Shown: positions 9,784-16,847, counted from the first letter of the stretch. The stretch is DNA of 25,094 nucleotides from a virus (IMGVR_UViG_3300030330_000417:1-25094), one strand, 5' to 3'. Numbers and translations are program-made. Notes: a model not told the origin generated them from the letters alone.

Positions 9784-11288
9784 TGTTGCAATTTGGCGAG
9801 TTTTTACCAGATCAGTCTGATTATACAAATGTTGGCGCAACAGATGCCAAGAACTGCATACCATTAACTAATAAAAGCTATGCGCCCTTGCGAGATTTGT
9901 CGCCTGTTATAGATGCTTTGACAAATCGCATACAAGGTGCTGTTTCAATGCAAGAGTCAGATGGAACACAGCACACGTTCTGTGGAGACAATCAGAACTT
10001 GTTTTTATTAGGCTCAAGTGCCTTTGCTGAAATATCCAAATCAACTAACGCCTATACTTGCGCTACAGACGATCATTGGGACTTTGTGCAGTATGGAGAT
10101 AGGGCAATTGCTGTCAATGGTCACACAGACGCTCCACAAAGTTTTGTAATGGGAACATCAAGCGACTTTGCTGATCTAGGAGGTAGTCCACCACAGGCGA
10201 AGCATTGTGGCGTTGTTGGCGAGTTCGTTATGTTTGGCAACATTGACGATGCAACAGATGGAGTAGTACCGAACAGAGTTCACTGGTGTGCTATTAATGA
10301 CCCAACAGACTGGCCTACGATCGGCAGTAGTGACGCAGCACAAAAGCAAAGTGACAGGCAAGACCTCAAAAGTGGCTTGAGTGTGCAAGCTATTATAGGG
10401 GCAGTTGGTGGTGCTGATGGTGCTATATTTATGCGGAATAGTGTGTTTCGAGTGTCATACGTAGGTGCGCCTCTTGTGTTTGAGTTTAAAGAGGTGGAAA
10501 GAGGACGAGGAACTATTGCATCACAGTCTGTTGTCAATGTCGGAGCTTTTGCGTTTTATTTAGCAGAACAAGGATTTTTTGTCTTTAACGGCTCAACCTC
10601 ACAAGCGATTGGCAACCAAAAAGTTGATAAATTCTTTTTTGCTGACTTGGATTTTAACTTTATACACCGCATAACAGCAGCACAAGACCCAGTAAACAAG
10701 TTAGTTTATTGGAGTTATCCTGGTGCTGACAACATAGATGGCAGGCCAAATAAGGTCATTATATACAACTGGGAAATAGGGCGTTGGTCGTATGGCGAAA
10801 TAACGGCTGATTTAATTTTCACTGACACCTCACCTGGCTACACAATGGACAACATTGATGGTTTTGGCAACATTGACGCTATTGACACAACCTTTGATGA
10901 CAGGTTCTGGGTTGGTGGCTTGTCTTCATTGTCAGCGTTTAACAGCGCACATCGGTTGTCTACTTTTACAGGCTCTGCATTGGCTACAACCTTAACAACA
11001 ACAGAGTTTGGGGGCATGGAATTGTTTAGCAAGCCTAATGAGCGATTGTATGTTAATGGAGTTAGACCCTATGTTGATGGTGGCACAATAACAGTTGAAC
11101 TAGATTATCGTGATAGCCCTAGCGGTTCTGTAACTACAGACGGACCGAATAGCGTAGATGCTAATGGCACAGCCCACTTTACACGTTCTTGTCGTTATGC
11201 AAGGGCAACAATAAAAGTAGCAGCTGGTGGCACATGGACACACGCACAAGGTGTAGATTTAGACGTTAGTGAGGATGGCACAAGTTAG
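9783..11288 (+). CDS. Tail nozzle/head-stabilisation protein (P22 gp10 / tubular protein B-like)
   Basis: FGEFLPDQ start and repeated beta-propeller-like blades (WDFVQYGD, RVHWCAINDPTDW, FYLAEQGFFVFNG, IIYNW...RWSY). TGATG-coupled to the adaptor. Confidence 0.8.
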   Translation: MLQFGEFLPDQSDYTNVGATDAKNCIPLTNKSYAPLRDLSPVIDALTNRIQGAVSMQESDGTQHTFCGDNQNLFLLGSSAFAEISKSTNAYTCATDDHWDFVQYGDRAIAVNGHTDAPQSFVMGTSSDFADLGGSPPQAKHCGVVGEFVMFGNIDDATDGVVPNRVHWCAINDPTDWPTIGSSDAAQKQSDRQDLKSGLSVQAIIGAVGGADGAIFMRNSVFRVSYVGAPLVFEFKEVERGRGTIASQSVVNVGAFAFYLAEQGFFVFNGSTSQAIGNQKVDKFFFADLDFNFIHRITAAQDPVNKLVYWSYPGADNIDGRPNKVIIYNWEIGRWSYGEITADLIFTDTSPGYTMDNIDGFGNIDAIDTTFDDRFWVGGLSSLSAFNSAHRLSTFTGSALATTLTTTEFGGMELFSKPNERLYVNGVRPYVDGGTITVELDYRDSPSGSVTTDGPNSVDANGTAHFTRSCRYARATIKVAAGGTWTHAQGVDLDVSEDGTS

Positions 11289-11629
11289 TGACAGTAACAG
11301 AATTTAACACACCACCTAGTGACTTAGACGATCAAAAGAAACTTGCACGTTTGCAAAGTCAAAGCATTGCTGGCTTGATGTTTGGTCGTAGCAACAACGT
11401 AATAGATTTTACTGCAACAGAAAACGCTGCCACGACTACAATAACTGACTCTAGGCTAGGCGTGAATACAGCCTTGTTCTTTATGCCAACAACGGCTAAT
11501 GCAAGTGCTGAAATAGGGGCAGGCACAATTTATGTAGGTCAGTCAAACAGGGTGAATGGTTCTGTTGTAGTTACTCATGCGAACAATTCACAGACAGATA
11601 GAACGTTCAAGGTAGTAATGGTGGGATAA
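11288..11629 (+). CDS. Small putative tail component (needle/plug position)
   Basis: GTG start overlapping the previous TAG. Short helix then beta-rich domain. Occupies the P22 gp26 position; function is from synteny only. Confidence 0.55.
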   Translation: MTVTEFNTPPSDLDDQKKLARLQSQSIAGLMFGRSNNVIDFTATENAATTTITDSRLGVNTALFFMPTTANASAEIGAGTIYVGQSNRVNGSVVVTHANNSQTDRTFKVVMVG

Positions 11630-12009
11630 TGCTGGATCATGTATTAGTTCTGTTGGCACATTCGCCAACGCATCATTATTGGACGATAAAGGAAGTAGCA
11701 AAACGCATAATACCACCTGTAAATCTTAATCAAAATGTGGGCATAATAGAAGATGGTTATTTAAAGGCATGGGCAAGTTGGGGCTTCCTTTCTGAAGAAA
11801 AGAGTGATAAGTTTTTAGATGGTGAGTACGAGTTGATGCCAGAAGATTGGAGAAGCGGCAACGTTCTGGTCTTTATGGATTTTGTAGCCCCTTATGGGCA
11901 TACAAGAAAATTGTATAGAATGTGTCGCAATCTATTCCCAAAATACCCAAAAGCTGAGTGGAGGCGACACCTTAAAAACAAGAGGGTAGGAGTGGCGTTA
12001 AATGTCTAG
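11629..12009 (+). CDS. HlyC/CyaC/RtxC-family toxin-activating lysine acyltransferase (TAAT) homolog
   Basis: Colinear HlyC motifs: SPTHHYW (HlyC SPLHRNW), IIPPVNLNQ (VLPAIQANQ), AWASWGFLSEE (AYCSWANLSLE), LMPEDWRSGN (LVAEDWTSGD) and FMDFVAPYG (FIDWIAPFG). The catalytic Ser/His/Asp equivalents S12, H15 and D84 are present. Confidence 0.9.
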   Translation: MLDHVLVLLAHSPTHHYWTIKEVAKRIIPPVNLNQNVGIIEDGYLKAWASWGFLSEEKSDKFLDGEYELMPEDWRSGNVLVFMDFVAPYGHTRKLYRMCRNLFPKYPKAEWRRHLKNKRVGVALNV

Positions 12010-12769
12010 TGGTACAAGTGGTGGTGGCATGAGTGGGGATGACCCCAATGACCCAAATTCACCAACCTATGGTGGAATAGCTGCTCCTGCTTCTAGAGGA
12101 GATGACGCAGACGATCCAAGTTCACCTAATTATGGTGGAATGGCTGATCTATATGCTGCTGATGCTGCGTTGCAATTTGACGGAACTTATCCAGAAGTTA
12201 CTGAGTTGGATGATTTTGCAGAACAACTTAGACCAGCAGAATTGCAACAACCACAAACTTTCATGGATAAAGTTGTTAAAGAGGTAGAGGACAAAACAGC
12301 AGGGGAAGTACTTTTTAGTCTTGCTAATGCTTTAGCACCACCGATCATAAGTATACCTGCAATGGGTCTTAATGCTTTAGCTAATGCAATGTATGATCCA
12401 ACAAGGGCAGGAAGAGGACCAGTTGACGGATATTATACAAACATGATGCCAAGGCCCGATTATACTTTAGGTAATATGTTTGGGTTAGGGTCAAAAGGTG
12501 CATTTCCTAACAATGAAATGGATTACGAATTTGATCCAACTTATACAAGAAATGTCTTTACTGATCGTAGTGAGATATTCGATGACCCATTAGAGGGAGG
12601 AAACCAAGACCCTGACCCTTATGGAAGGCGTTATTTGTTGCCAACACCACAAACAACAGCACCTGTAGAGCCAATGGTAAACAATCCTTTGCCATTGACC
12701 CCTTATGATTACCAAAAACAAAAGTGGATGGGTAATCAGTTTATATTAGCACCTATTAGGAGAACATAG
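12002..12769 (+). CDS. Acidic Pro/Gly/Asp-rich protein, candidate internal virion/ejection protein
   Basis: Overlaps the TAAT gene by 8 nt, with AGGAG SD. Has an N-terminal 16-aa duplication and a central hydrophobic stretch (VLFSLANALAPPIISIPAMGLNALANAM). Confidence 0.55.
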   Translation: MSSGTSGGGMSGDDPNDPNSPTYGGIAAPASRGDDADDPSSPNYGGMADLYAADAALQFDGTYPEVTELDDFAEQLRPAELQQPQTFMDKVVKEVEDKTAGEVLFSLANALAPPIISIPAMGLNALANAMYDPTRAGRGPVDGYYTNMMPRPDYTLGNMFGLGSKGAFPNNEMDYEFDPTYTRNVFTDRSEIFDDPLEGGNQDPDPYGRRYLLPTPQTTAPVEPMVNNPLPLTPYDYQKQKWMGNQFILAPIRRT

Positions 12770-12771
12770 CT

Positions 12772-13608
12772 ATGAGTAGCGGTAGCAAGCCAGCCACTTA
12801 CCAGACAACTACAACAAGTGCTGCACCTTGGTCTGGACAGCAAGAATATCTTACAACTGGCTATCAAAGGGCGAGAGATGATATTTTAAACAGGCCAACA
12901 GAATTTTATCCTAATTCTACAGTCGTGCCGTTTTCGCCTGTAACAGAACAGGCATTGACAATGCAAGAGCAAAGGGCATTAGCTGGCTCACCTGTTACGC
13001 AAGCTGCTCAGTCTCAAGTTCAAAGCACAATACAAGGAGATTTTCTTAATGCTAACCCTTATTTGTCACAAGCTATTACAGACGCTACGCAGCCTGCTAT
13101 AGAGAGATTTCAAGAAGATATTGTGCCAAGCATACAATCAGCATACAGCAGTGCTGGTAGATATGGATCAGGGTTACAGCAAAGAGGCGAAGAAAGAGCA
13201 GCGCAAGCTGCTTTAGATCAAGCCTCAAAAATTGCTTCCGATATGTCATATCGTAATTTTGCTGATGAAAGAGCAAGGCAGTTGGCAGCGTCTGCATTAG
13301 CTCCAGAGATGGCAAGACAGGATTATGTAGACTTGCAAGCCTTAAAAGGAGTTGGCGTAGAGCGTGAGGGCATGGCTGGCGCACAACTACAAGAAGACAT
13401 ACAAAGGTTTGCACAGCAACAGCAAGCACCTAAAGACGCATTGTCACAGTATATGGCACTCGTTGGAGGTGGTGGTTACACAGACACAACGCAGACAACG
13501 CCTTTATATAGAAACTTAGCCGGTGATATATTAGGTGGTGCAGCAACAACGGCTGGAATAGCAGGGCAGTTATTTGGTCGTCAAGGCATCTTTCCGTATG
13601 GGGGTTAA
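12772..13608 (+). CDS. Candidate DNA ejection (internal virion) protein
   Basis: AGGAG SD. MSSGSK..TTTT..PW..Q..YL start, NPYL and SAGRYGSG motifs, Q/A-rich helices, and a Gly-rich hydrophobic C-terminus. These match the podovirus pilot/ejection protein pattern and position. Confidence 0.7.
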   Translation: MSSGSKPATYQTTTTSAAPWSGQQEYLTTGYQRARDDILNRPTEFYPNSTVVPFSPVTEQALTMQEQRALAGSPVTQAAQSQVQSTIQGDFLNANPYLSQAITDATQPAIERFQEDIVPSIQSAYSSAGRYGSGLQQRGEERAAQAALDQASKIASDMSYRNFADERARQLAASALAPEMARQDYVDLQALKGVGVEREGMAGAQLQEDIQRFAQQQQAPKDALSQYMALVGGGGYTDTTQTTPLYRNLAGDILGGAATTAGIAGQLFGRQGIFPYGG

Positions 13609-13612
13609 TTAA

Positions 13613-14809
13613 ATGATTATGAACAAAAGATTTCCTGGTTTACTTGTTACCCCTGCTGACAAGGAGCAAGCCCTTTATAGTGGATTAATGGGACTAGGCT
13701 CACAACTTGCACAAGGCTACACGAAACAGCCATCATCATTTTTGCAAAGATTAACACAAGGTGGTCAGGCATTTCAAAAAGCCTATGGTGACAAGATAGC
13801 CACAACGAAGGCAGAGCAATTGCAAAATATGCAAGCTCAATCTGCACAGGCACAATTAGAAGCGCAAATGATGAAGATAGCAGAAGCTGCAAAATTAAAG
13901 AAACTACAAGAAGACCGAGAGCAAGCAGCAATGAGATATTTTGGCTCACAAGGTCAGTACTCACCCAACATGATGGATGCTAGTGGCATTGAACAAACAA
14001 TGGACACAAGAAATGTAAGTGGCTCAATGCCTTTATCTGTATACGACAAAGTGAGAATGAATACAGGGCAATCATACGATGTGCTTAAAGATATAGACAC
14101 AAGAAGACAAAAAGAAGAAGAAGCAATTGCTAAATTTGAGCGTGACTTACTGTTGGAAAAAATAAAAAAGCAAGGGTCAAAAGGCCTAAATCTAGAAAAA
14201 ATTATGCAGCTTGAAAGAGATTTAGCAAAAGATGTACAAACTTCGTTAAAACCTCAAATAGAAAGGGTAAGAAATTATAGGGCTATCGAAGCAATATATG
14301 ATGATCCAGCTACATTAGAAGCTGCGAAAAATAAATTTGGTGGTCGTGTAGAAATAGATGGAAAAGTTTTCCAACTTACGGGGCAAGGCGCAGCAGATAT
14401 GGCCTTAATTTTTGCTTTTATGAAAATGAATGACCCAGGTTCAGTTGTTAGGGAAAGTGAATTTGATATGGCAGCAGAAACTGGAGGAACAACGCAAGCT
14501 GCTGTAAACTTTATTGGTAAAGTGTTAAAAGGTGATAGGTTAAGTAGTAAAGAAAGAAGAAAGTTATTGCGACAAGCACGAAATCAATTTAACGCAGCTA
14601 AAGAAGAAATTGACTTACGACTACAATCAGAAACTGCCAGATTTAAAGAATATGATGACCCAGGCTTAAGTGCAGAACGAGCTTTAAGATCAGTTTATAC
14701 ACCTTACACACCAAGAATTTCAGCAGATTTATTAAGGCGTAATATAACAGGAAGAGCAGGTTCTATTACAGAGGACGAGCTACCATTTGACGCCGTTAAA
14801 GTAGGTTAG
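13613..14809 (+). CDS. Candidate DNA ejection (internal virion) protein
   Basis: Helical Q/A/K-rich protein containing D.ALIFAFMK..DPGSVVRESEF, a motif I recall from podovirus DNA-transfer proteins. Position fits. Confidence 0.65.
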   Translation: MIMNKRFPGLLVTPADKEQALYSGLMGLGSQLAQGYTKQPSSFLQRLTQGGQAFQKAYGDKIATTKAEQLQNMQAQSAQAQLEAQMMKIAEAAKLKKLQEDREQAAMRYFGSQGQYSPNMMDASGIEQTMDTRNVSGSMPLSVYDKVRMNTGQSYDVLKDIDTRRQKEEEAIAKFERDLLLEKIKKQGSKGLNLEKIMQLERDLAKDVQTSLKPQIERVRNYRAIEAIYDDPATLEAAKNKFGGRVEIDGKVFQLTGQGAADMALIFAFMKMNDPGSVVRESEFDMAAETGGTTQAAVNFIGKVLKGDRLSSKERRKLLRQARNQFNAAKEEIDLRLQSETARFKEYDDPGLSAERALRSVYTPYTPRISADLLRRNITGRAGSITEDELPFDAVKVG

Positions 14810-14819
14810 GAATAAAATT

Positions 14820-16847
14820 GTGACAGACATTCTATATAGTAAAGAAAAAAACCAATACTATTTAAAAGATGCTGATGGCATTACACCTGTTGATGATGTC
14901 AAACAAACAGATAAAGGTGAATATATTGTTGATTATGGAGATGGCAATTATGTCAATCTTGAAAAAGAATATGAGCCTAGTTTCTACGATTACGCACAAC
15001 AAGTTGTAGGACAAGGCACACTTATGGGTATCGGAGACGAAATTGCAGGAACAGTAAAAGGTTTATATGAAGGATTAACAACAGATAAAAGTGTTGGAGA
15101 CGCAATAAATCAAAACATAGATGCAGAACGTGAAAGAATGGCAAAAACAGAAGCATCATTAGGTATGCCAGCAACATTAGCTTTGCAAGGTGGTGGGGGC
15201 TTGCTTACTGGTGGTTTAGGTCTTGGTAGGGCGTTAGCAAGGCAAGGGCTTTCTAAAACACAACAAGTATTACGAGGTTCGGGCATAGGTGGAGTACAGG
15301 GCGGTGTGACAGGGGCAGGAATGGCTGAAGGAAATTTGCTTGACCCAGAAGGTTTAGCAAGTCGTGGGATTGGGCTTGGCATAGGAACAGTAGGAGGAGC
15401 TATAGGGGGTGGACTTTTAACTGGGTTAGGACAACAAGTTGGAAAAGTGTTAAGCGCAACAGAACGAAAGTTGCCAGGTGGCGCAGATAGACAAACAGCA
15501 AGAGTTTTACAGCAAGTAATACCTAGAAAAGCTGTGCCTCGAATGGAAAGAGAGTTAGGAAAAATGTCTAGAGGTGTGCCTATGGACGTTGCTCCACTTG
15601 ATGCTCAAAGATTAGCAGGGGCAGCAATTAGGTCAATTGGAGGTGGTAGACAGCAAGAAATTTTAAAAGCAAGACAAAAAGGGCAAGCAAGTAGGTTTGA
15701 CAATATAATTGATAAAATTGTTTCACCTCAATCAGGTGCAGAAATGTTGGAAACATTAGCAAAAGACCGACAATTAAACGCTAACAAGCAATATTCAAAA
15801 GTCTACGAACAAGAAGTACCACTTACAAAAGAATTAAAAAATTTATACAAAACAAACGCAGTAAAAAAATCTTTTAGAATGGCTAAAATGATAGCAGATG
15901 ATGAAAACGTTAACTTGCCAAACCTTGTTACAAAAACAAAAGAAGGCGAGGCTTTTGTTAAGCCAACTGCACGGATGTTAGATTATATGAAGCAAGGGCT
16001 AGACGCTTATGTAGACGCTCAATATAGAATAAGCGGACCGTTAGGGAGAAGCGCACAAAATGTAAGAAATAGATTTAGAGATCATTTAGACGCAATAATA
16101 CCAGGATATAAGGATGCACGTTCTACCTATGCTGGATTTTCTGCAGCAATAGAAGCTCTTGAAAATGGCGTTAATTATATGAGGTCTAGCCTTGGTGATG
16201 AGCTATCAAGTATAAAAGATTTAGTAAGCAAATCTGATATAGAAAAATTAAAATTAAACGATCACGAATATCAATCGTTTCGTTCTGGAATTGCTGCTGT
16301 CTTAAAGGACAAAGTTAAAGGAAAACCTTTTGAAGCAGATGTAACAAAGATTTTTAACACGCCAAAAATATTAGAAAAATTAAATATAGCATTAGGGAAA
16401 AAAGATGCAAAAGCGTTAATAAACGAAATTCGCAAAGAAGCTAAACAAGCTCAATCTTTTGCAGAAACACAAGGTTCAGCATCGGGACAAAGAATAAGCG
16501 CACAACAAAGTTTAGAAAAACCAATGAACGTAATGGCGTTAGGTGGCGATCCTACATTGATAGCAGCTAATGCTATGGCACAAACTCTTAACAGATTAAA
16601 CCCACCACCCGAAGTAATTGCTAGAAATATATCTAGGCTAATGGCTTCACCTAAAATAGAAGACCAAATGCAAGCATTTAGGCTGTTAAAAAATAGAGAC
16701 AAATTTGAGCCTATGTTAAAAGTAGCTAATAGGGTTGTAGGCACAAAACCACGAAGTGTAATTCTTGACAGCTTGGCAGGCGGTGGAGGTTACTTAGGAG
16801 GTTACTTAGGAGGTAATGTAGGTGGACAATTAGGAACAGGACAATAA
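14820..16847 (+). CDS. Large candidate DNA ejection protein
   Basis: GTG start. GQG.LMG.GDEI.G motif, Gly-rich hydrophobic segments, and LDYMKQGLD / PGYKDARS.YA helical motifs. Last gene before the tail fibre. Confidence 0.7.
   Translation: MTDILYSKEKNQYYLKDADGITPVDDVKQTDKGEYIVDYGDGNYVNLEKEYEPSFYDYAQQVVGQGTLMGIGDEIAGTVKGLYEGLTTDKSVGDAINQNIDAERERMAKTEASLGMPATLALQGGGGLLTGGLGLGRALARQGLSKTQQVLRGSGIGGVQGGVTGAGMAEGNLLDPEGLASRGIGLGIGTVGGAIGGGLLTGLGQQVGKVLSATERKLPGGADRQTARVLQQVIPRKAVPRMERELGKMSRGVPMDVAPLDAQRLAGAAIRSIGGGRQQEILKARQKGQASRFDNIIDKIVSPQSGAEMLETLAKDRQLNANKQYSKVYEQEVPLTKELKNLYKTNAVKKSFRMAKMIADDENVNLPNLVTKTKEGEAFVKPTARMLDYMKQGLDAYVDAQYRISGPLGRSAQNVRNRFRDHLDAIIPGYKDARSTYAGFSAAIEALENGVNYMRSSLGDELSSIKDLVSKSDIEKLKLNDHEYQSFRSGIAAVLKDKVKGKPFEADVTKIFNTPKILEKLNIALGKKDAKALINEIRKEAKQAQSFAETQGSASGQRISAQQSLEKPMNVMALGGDPTLIAANAMAQTLNRLNPPPEVIARNISRLMASPKIEDQMQAFRLLKNRDKFEPMLKVANRVVGTKPRSVILDSLAGGGGYLGGYLGGNVGGQLGTGQ
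16785..16814 (+). repeat. 12-nt tandem repeat (GGAGGTTACTTA)x2 + GGAGGT
   Basis: Read directly. Encodes GGYLGGYLGG at the end of the large ejection protein. Confidence 0.9.

Follow-up and report, generated by a model that had tools for sequence, protein, structure and literature searches.

The stretch of DNA analyzed here (the window) is a viral contig of 25,094 nucleotides (nt), IMGVR_UViG_3300030330_000417:1-25094, from a P22-like marine phage, in which positions 11629-12009 encode a genuine toxin-activating lysine-acyltransferase (TAAT) of the HlyC family, an assignment made secure by profile, fold and catalytic residues together. This enzyme belongs to an operon of virion genes, and in related phages its gene always appears with a second one, coding for a hypervariable protein, here called p255 after its length of 255 amino acids (aa) in the window. 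What is new is this all-or-none pairing, the presence of a gene with the GCN5-related N-acetyltransferase (GNAT) fold in relatives that lack the TAAT, and a desaturase gene standing beside the TAAT in some of them; the attribution of the genomic slot to an acetyltransferase family (PMC4819975), HlyC labels in marine phages and the non-RTX substrate of CdiC were already known. On the evidence of sequences and structural models, we lean towards the view that the TAAT takes acyl chains from host acyl carrier protein (acyl-ACP) and acylates one of the proteins encoded in the DNA-ejection module, with p255 as the likeliest target. The record is estimated to be 72% complete, and statements of absence are therefore limited to this 25,094-bp fragment.

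The family assignment proposed by the initial annotation on the basis of motifs withstood comparison with both profiles and structures. Against the Pfam family HlyC (PF02794), the protein scored 75.5 bits (cut-off 25; E 4.6e-21) over profile positions 2-110 of 127, and 74.7 bits when the whole record was searched, while the sequence of ApxC (PDB 4WHN) matched at E 4.5e-17. The four motifs follow one another in the expected order in the translation (SPTH 12-15, AWASWGFLS 47-55, EDWRSG 72-77 and DFVAPYG 84-90), with S12, H15 and D84 intact and lined up with catalytic residues of ApxC, and the HMMER alignment pairs H15 with the histidine of the ApxC motif ‘SPLH’ and D84 with the aspartate of ‘FIDWIAP’. 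An AlphaFold (AF2) model built from 25 homologs, with a predicted local distance difference test score (pLDDT) of 83.3, retrieved 4WHN as the top Foldseek match (E 2.6e-9, TMq 0.79-0.81). Superposition on ApxC by VIA-align gave Z 16.1, with a root-mean-square deviation of 2.3 Å over 124 residues and 32% identity, and the next match stood at Z 8.6. Below ApxC came GNAT and GNAT-like domains at Z 7-8.6, with Foldseek E >0.01; the core fold is GNAT-like. Neither the TAAT nor the GNAT-fold protein of its relatives received a name from NCBIfam.

The family is broad. An exhaustive HMMER search collected 770 cluster representatives at E <=0.001, and residue conservation was counted over 150 rows comprising the window TAAT and the 149 best of these 770 representatives. 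His occupies position 15 in 133 rows and Tyr in 10, an acidic residue is kept at position 84 in 149/150 (131 Asp, 18 Glu), and Arg stands at position 113 in 122. Because 65 of the 149 best representatives measure 145 aa or less, a short form of the enzyme is common. The close homologs, at 56-96% identity, are all metagenomic, and D84 is invariant in their alignment (25 sequences).

The TAAT gene is tied into its operon on both sides, as had been seen initially. The stop codon of the upstream open reading frame (ORF) overlaps the TAAT start as TAATG (GGATAATGCTGG), and the next ORF begins at 12002, giving an overlap of 8 nt (ATGTCTAG). The customary companions of a toxin activator, whose absence had also been reported, were not found in the window: GGxGxD occurs once in its six frames, inside the terminase, and no RTX-repeat, HlyB or HlyD family was matched among 31 ORFs scanned against Pfam. 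An RTX-like substrate encoded elsewhere in the genome had been named as an observation that would contradict the proposal; the search of five related viral records, two of them estimated at 100% completeness, two at 92-94% and one at 83%, returned no HemolysinCabind match (0/5). The same five records contain no match to a PP-binding carrier protein (0/5), so any acyl donor would have to be that of the host.

Evidence on the role of the enzyme comes from a survey of gene neighborhoods. This was anchored on p278, the ejection-type protein encoded after p255 (phrog_4287), and comprised 32 viral contigs with 24-99% identity to p278 plus the window, making 33 loci; plus-strand ORFs called by script were scanned with purpose-built hidden Markov models (HMMs), and key ORFs were checked against Pfam. 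Its scope is this phage group plus three isolated phages, the 53 diverse short TAATs being too divergent to seed a wider scan. A TAAT is encoded in 19 of the 33 loci and lacking in 14; the calls for six of the latter (L048, L050-L054) rest on the purpose-built HMM rather than on Pfam. The HMM for the C-terminal motif of p255 found a match in 19/19 TAAT-positive loci and in 0/14 TAAT-negative ones, and in all 19 a p255-type ORF of 199-341 aa starts about 30 nt or less from the end of a TAAT gene. The ejection proteins as a group had been put forward as partners of the enzyme; the TAAT does head the ejection block, but its tie is to p255 specifically (19/19 versus 0/14). The neighboring p278, used as the anchor, has homologs in 33/33 loci.

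Where the TAAT is missing, a GNAT-fold family of 126-186 aa is encoded directly before p278 in 13 of 14 loci, the exception being L044. Its members are mutually related and occur also in the Methylophilales phage Venkman, and the family model (pLDDT 90) yielded GNAT acetyltransferases at Z 13.8-12.2 in all 50 best structural matches. The same gene precedes p278 in 2/19 TAAT-positive loci (L040, L041), which hold both enzymes, so the TAAT is not simply a replacement. Alternation of TAAT and GNAT genes, which had been proposed as a test, was borne out in this phage group: the two largely alternate in the slot, and the TAAT brings p255 along. Taken together, the 19 TAAT-positive and 13 GNAT-only loci place an acyltransferase-fold gene in the slot in 32 of 33. 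A profile relationship of this local GNAT family to the TAAT was considered and rejected (hhalign probability 0.35%). The one locus with neither gene before p278 has an unrelated 198-aa ORF there instead (L044:4353-4949).

About four TAAT lineages are present in these loci: the window type, that of L042 (47% identity), that of L033 (27%) and that of L040 and L041 (26%); the second TAAT copy in L014 and L015 belongs to the last of these. In L012 and L030, which are the same contig, the order is TerL, TAAT, p255, p278 and p398, and the TAAT-p255 pair is intact despite the altered gene order. In L012:1737-4295 the pair directly follows an ORF matching the window terminase, and not the tail genes; the TAAT thus keeps with the ejection genes.

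The partner protein p255 begins with small residues followed by a Gly/Asp/Ser-rich sequence, and hydropathy indicates one hydrophobic segment in the window protein, at residues ~100-129. Its middle is hypervariable, with 20-30% identity between clades and 69% to the nearest relative, and alignments reveal a conserved C-terminal motif, PY.F...W.GN.F..AP..R. No Pfam or PHROG family was matched, and the matches in the ESM Atlas were viral hypothetical clusters only. Some p255 homologs, and gp29 of Roseobacter phage CRP-235, have single GGxGxD matches in N-termini rich in Gly and Asp; these matches do not form tandem nonapeptide repeats and were set aside because composition alone leads one to expect them. 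Two p255 homologs (L016:8388-9413 and L017:8388-9251) share an N-terminal extension with a p278 homolog, gp46 of Venkman (L023:6770-7678); it carries the motif ELA(H/Y)(V/I)..(E/K).(A/E).LLK...(GG).G...(P/L), followed by a poly-Gly run.

In four contigs with two different gene arrangements, a fatty acid desaturase gene lies beside the TAAT within the virion operon (Table 1). The order in L014 and L015 is p113 homolog, TAAT, desaturase, second TAAT (HlyC E 3e-22), p255 and p278; in L040 and L041 it is p113 homolog, desaturase, TAAT (E 4.9e-27), p255, GNAT-fold gene and p278. Both desaturases are weakly DesA-like in NCBIfam, far under the model cut-off. The two TAAT subtypes that flank the desaturase in L015 (L015:7974-8408 and L015:9135-9608) are 58% and 23% identical to the window TAAT, and in the second the catalytic His and Asp are replaced by Tyr and Glu, respectively. 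Scans with the second TAAT type and the desaturase returned the same four contigs plus one desaturase homolog, which is 33% identical and lies in a 342-kb viral contig (L063; IMGVR_UViG_3300027757_000397). Cyanophages carry lipid desaturases as auxiliary genes.

Comparison with characterized systems places the phage enzyme close to, and yet apart from, the toxin activators. With ApxC, HlyC and CyaC it shares the family, by profile and fold, the His/Asp dyad and the conserved Arg, and its gene stands immediately upstream of that of the presumed substrate, as hlyC does before hlyA. In contrast to the full-length architecture of ~170 aa, it has only 126 aa, it is accompanied by neither an RTX-repeat substrate nor HlyB/HlyD, and it is encoded in a virion operon. 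The characterized TAATs all serve bacterial toxins or effectors (PMC8510554). Among them, CdiC lipidates CdiA, a non-RTX substrate that targets the envelope and whose gene adjoins cdiC; the modified site, Lys1467, and the lipid, 3-hydroxydecanoate, have both been demonstrated (PMC8510554). The same source locates the acylated lysines of HlyA in Gly-Lys motifs and that of CdiA in a poorly conserved sequence context. The phage TAAT resembles CdiC in pairing with a non-RTX protein that, as predicted for the phage, would need to engage a Gram-negative envelope; it differs in that CdiC is bacterial, with substrate, site and lipid established, whereas the phage enzyme is known here from sequence and model. 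A TAAT system outside the toxins, which the initial annotation had presented as a novelty, was accordingly an overstatement, given the CdiC-CdiA precedent (PMC8510554) and the HlyC genes already labeled in pelagiphage and roseophage records.

The slot itself has a longer history. Hardies et al. (2016; PMC4819975) used HHpred to place in an acetyltransferase family the small non-structural gene that is flanked by the tail genes on one side and by internal virion protein B on the other. The occupants of this internal virion protein A (IVP-A) slot include T7 gp13 and P22 gp14, both of which the initial annotation had placed there as acetyltransferase-like genes; the statement is indeed in print, and the GNAT-like nature of both rests on that source. 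According to the same paper, morphogenesis requires these occupants, which are missing from the virion and for which no enzyme activity has been demonstrated. A GNAT gene of cobaviruses (SIO1/cobavirus pc40) has likewise been equated with T7 gp13 (PMC6775973). In Pfam, P22 gp14 is PF11039 (DUF2824) and T7 gp13 is PF11090, named probable scaffold protein. The window TAAT fits this slot in following the last of the tail genes and preceding the first gene for an internal virion or ejection protein, in a position where occupants are small and acetyltransferase-like and where TAAT-less relatives have a GNAT-fold gene. It departs from it in coming with an extra gene, p255, and in coexisting with a GNAT gene in L040 and L041. 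It shows no BLASTP similarity to P22 gp14 or T7 gp13, and matches HlyC only, not PF11090 or PF11039. A literature search, whose coverage excluded most subscription journals, found nothing on acylated or lipidated phage ejection or virion proteins or on the function of DUF2824.

Four observations lead us to infer an ejection-module protein as the target of the TAAT: its translational coupling, its strict joint occurrence with p255, a gene order like that of hlyC-hlyA and cdiC-cdiA, and the desaturase neighbors. In the mechanism we propose, the enzyme would be expressed late, together with the virion genes, would draw on host acyl-ACP, and would N-acylate p255 covalently, at a lysine or at its N-terminus of small residues. 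The lipid would then help p255, with its single hydrophobic segment, to enter the host envelope during DNA ejection, following the logic of HlyC with HlyA and of CdiC with CdiA. In phages that have the desaturase, this enzyme would adjust the acyl chains available.

Several observations weigh against this proposal. The main internal difficulty is that no lysine column is conserved across p255 homologs, which have 3-8 lysines each at shifting positions (14 in two N-extended homologs); the acyl site may drift, by analogy with the sequence context of the CdiA lysine, the N-terminal amine may be modified instead, or a neighboring protein may be the target. The catalytic residues are a further concern, as His15 is replaced by Tyr in 3/25 close homologs, and Tyr is also found in the desaturase-linked TAATs (with Glu for Asp), in that of Pelagibacter phage HTVC111P and in that of a bacterial contig, L056. 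The model aligns to residues 10-137 of the 169 of ApxC, some 35 C-terminal residues being missing, so the enzyme is a short form without the C-terminal segment of ApxC. Since the 33 loci are interrelated, the co-occurrence with p255 rests on about four independent TAAT lineages, and the TAAT-less relatives evidently infect without the enzyme. Membrane desaturases of the type found in the phage operons act on acyl-lipids or acyl-CoA, not on acyl-ACP, which makes their link to the donor pool of the TAAT an indirect one.

The difficulty with the p255 lysines gives some weight to the alternative that the TAAT modifies p113, p278, p398 or p675, with p255 acting as a co-factor or adaptor or traveling as an unrelated passenger of the cassette. 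Unlike p255, these proteins have lysines that are well kept in TAAT-positive phages: K66 of p398 in 8/8, K502 of p675, in a Gly-Lys context like that of the HlyA sites, in 7/8, K221 of p278 in 8/9 and K108 of p113 in 17/18. The last two are biased towards TAAT-positive loci (K221, 17/19 versus 1/14; K108, 17/18 versus 2/13) and were examined as candidate acylation sites. They were rejected, as 16 of 110 conserved columns in p278 and 8 of 40 in p113 are equally clade-specific, and the pattern fails in L020 and L042; these lysines are indistinguishable from ordinary clade-specific residues. All four candidates occur, moreover, in the 14 TAAT-negative loci, where p255 never does, and the TAAT pair of L056 has no adjoining p278, p398 or p675. 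We regard a target other than p255 as unlikely.

Somewhat less probable still is that the TAAT is a non-catalytic assembly chaperone for the ejection proteins, its fold serving only as a binding platform. The known properties of IVP-A occupants, required for morphogenesis and missing from the virion, would suit such a role, as would the scaffold label that T7 gp13 bears in Pfam, the substitution of His15 in several lineages and the missing C-terminal part. A mere scaffold would not be expected, however, to retain an acidic residue at position 84 in all but one of 150 rows together with a strongly conserved Arg113 and S-x-x-H motif, and a neighboring desaturase would make no sense for it. Classical GNATs usually employ tyrosine, the residue that replaces His15, as their general acid. 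Furthermore, CdiC and ApxC stay active when their histidine is mutated to alanine (PMC8510554). A host-directed role, in which the TAAT would acylate an RTX-type or other surface protein of the host or remodel envelope lipids with the desaturase for an auxiliary or exclusion function, has the toxin-related tasks of characterized TAATs and the auxiliary desaturases of cyanophages on its side, but we give it little credence in view of the coupling on both sides within a late structural operon, the travel of the TAAT with p255 even where gene order differs, and the lack of an RTX-repeat protein in the five related phage records.

Acylation of p255 would bear on a question that has stood for decades, the role of the podovirus slot gene (T7 gp13, P22 gp14), which is needed for infectious particles and absent from them. 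The slot is now seen to hold a member of an enzyme family of well-understood chemistry, locked to one partner, alternating with a GNAT-fold gene and sometimes accompanied by a desaturase, which makes the question a concrete one, namely whether the neighbor carries an acyl mark. If so, p255 would be the first injection protein of a tailed phage with a covalently attached lipid, TAAT substrates would extend from toxins to viral entry machinery, and T7 and P22 would merit a search of their own ejection proteins for acetyl or acyl marks. A more general proposal, which we put forward as speculative and rather improbable, is that the IVP-A-slot enzymes as a class (T7 gp13, P22 gp14, the marine podovirus GNATs and the TAAT) covalently acylate an ejection protein; here the mark would be a long fatty acyl chain supplied by host acyl-ACP, desaturase-tuned in some relatives, on a fast-evolving, envelope-inserting pilot protein that opens the DNA channel. 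Should the acylation of p255 be refuted, the TAAT gene would remain an already-annotated curiosity of marine phages.

A similar arrangement is seen around the TAAT genes of isolated phages. GenBank already labels them in Pelagibacter phages HTVC111P and HTVC026P and in Roseobacter phage CRP-235, and the figure legend of a pelagiphage preprint (bioRxiv 10.1101/2019.12.14.876532) bears the label ‘HlyC, toxin-activating lysine-acyltransferase’, which the available part of that text leaves without functional discussion. A tblastn search of the phage collection with the window TAAT gave nothing at E 1e-3, and a run at E 10 brought up three annotated TAAT genes at E ~0.01-0.02. In CRP-235, gp30 (HlyC E 1.6e-15) lies 2 nt upstream of the gene for a 491-aa protein starting MGGGGGD, after which come a lysozyme and very large proteins. 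The HTVC111P gene, gp50 (HlyC E 2.1e-12), has a tape-measure gene upstream and overlaps the gene for a Phage-tail_3 protein of 968 aa, the N-terminus of which is hydrophobic and rich in Lys. The isolated marine phages (HTVC111P, HTVC026P, HTVC023P-type and CRP-235) resemble the window in placing HlyC genes in structural modules directly before large tail or internal proteins. They differ in phage type and in the downstream proteins, and their TAATs are only 22-25% identical to that of the window.

The search of bacterial genomes gave a single match, the Rhodospirillales metagenome-assembled genome contig L056, whose TAAT is 33% identical to that of the window and has Tyr at the His position. 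In L056:6691-9147, a large upstream ORF is followed by the TAAT and then by a 258-aa Gly/Ser/Asp-rich protein, which has an N-terminal stretch in common with the L042 partner and lacks the C-terminal motif.

The window contains a single long rightward late operon, running from the terminases through to the lysozyme (Table 1), and the relatives of its portal are marine and freshwater podoviruses at less than 50% identity.

Table 1. Genes of the late operon in the window, and desaturase genes beside the TAAT in related contigs.
Feature	Position	Strand	Evidence or remark
Small terminase, then large terminase	operon start	+	
P22-type portal	after terminases	+	E 4e-192
Scaffold, then P22-type coat protein	between portal and SU10-type adaptor	+	
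Head-tail adaptor, 215 aa	9136..9783	+	Pfam SU10_adaptor E 6.8e-28; phrog_2941 E 3.7e-39
Virion structural protein, 501 aa	9783..11288	+	phrog_3287 E 8.9e-76; conserved upstream neighbor in relatives
p113, small conserved protein, 113 aa	11288..11629	+	last tail-side gene before ejection block
TAAT (HlyC family, short form), 126 aa	11629..12009	+	S12, H15, D84, R113 present
p255, hypervariable protein, 255 aa	12002..12769	+	8-nt overlap with TAAT
p278, ejection-type protein, 278 aa	12772..13608	+	phrog_4287 ‘DNA ejection protein’ E 6e-15
p398, ejection-module protein, 398 aa	13613..14809	+	phrog_13634 E 1.4e-12; syntenic in relatives
p675, Gly-rich ejection-module protein, 675 aa	14820..16847	+	phrog_5880 E 9.9e-40
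829-aa fiber-like protein, tail-fiber chaperone, lysis genes, lysozyme	after p675	+	
FA_desaturase (PF00487)	L015:8392-9150, same gene in L014		E 6e-22
FA_desaturase	L040:2776-3549, same gene in L041		E 1.9e-17

Counterparts of the 501-aa structural protein are labeled ‘stabilization protein’ in the records of phage Venkman and MW202462. The small protein p113 has homologs, detected by HMM, in 31/33 loci, in TAAT-positive and TAAT-negative phages alike, and no Pfam or PHROG family was matched to it. It and its homologs always finish in a short hydrophobic tail (...VVMVG, ...YIIVG), and in MW202462 (L024:6107-6892) the counterpart is enlarged to 261 aa by an inserted domain. At the other end of the block, p675 has a hydrophobic stretch at ~183-204 by hydropathy and is syntenic, yet it is swapped for unrelated proteins in some relatives. 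In very close relatives of the window, an unrelated 570-aa protein takes its place (L025:3483-5195, L027:4712-6424 and L028:6001-7713), which shows that the block can exchange its last gene. Finally, an open-ended ORF at positions 1-753 of the window joins a DUF1376 domain (E 3.5e-13) to a DnaT DNA-binding domain (E 9.5e-5) through a (Pro-Thr)5 linker, and probably encodes a replication-initiation helper.

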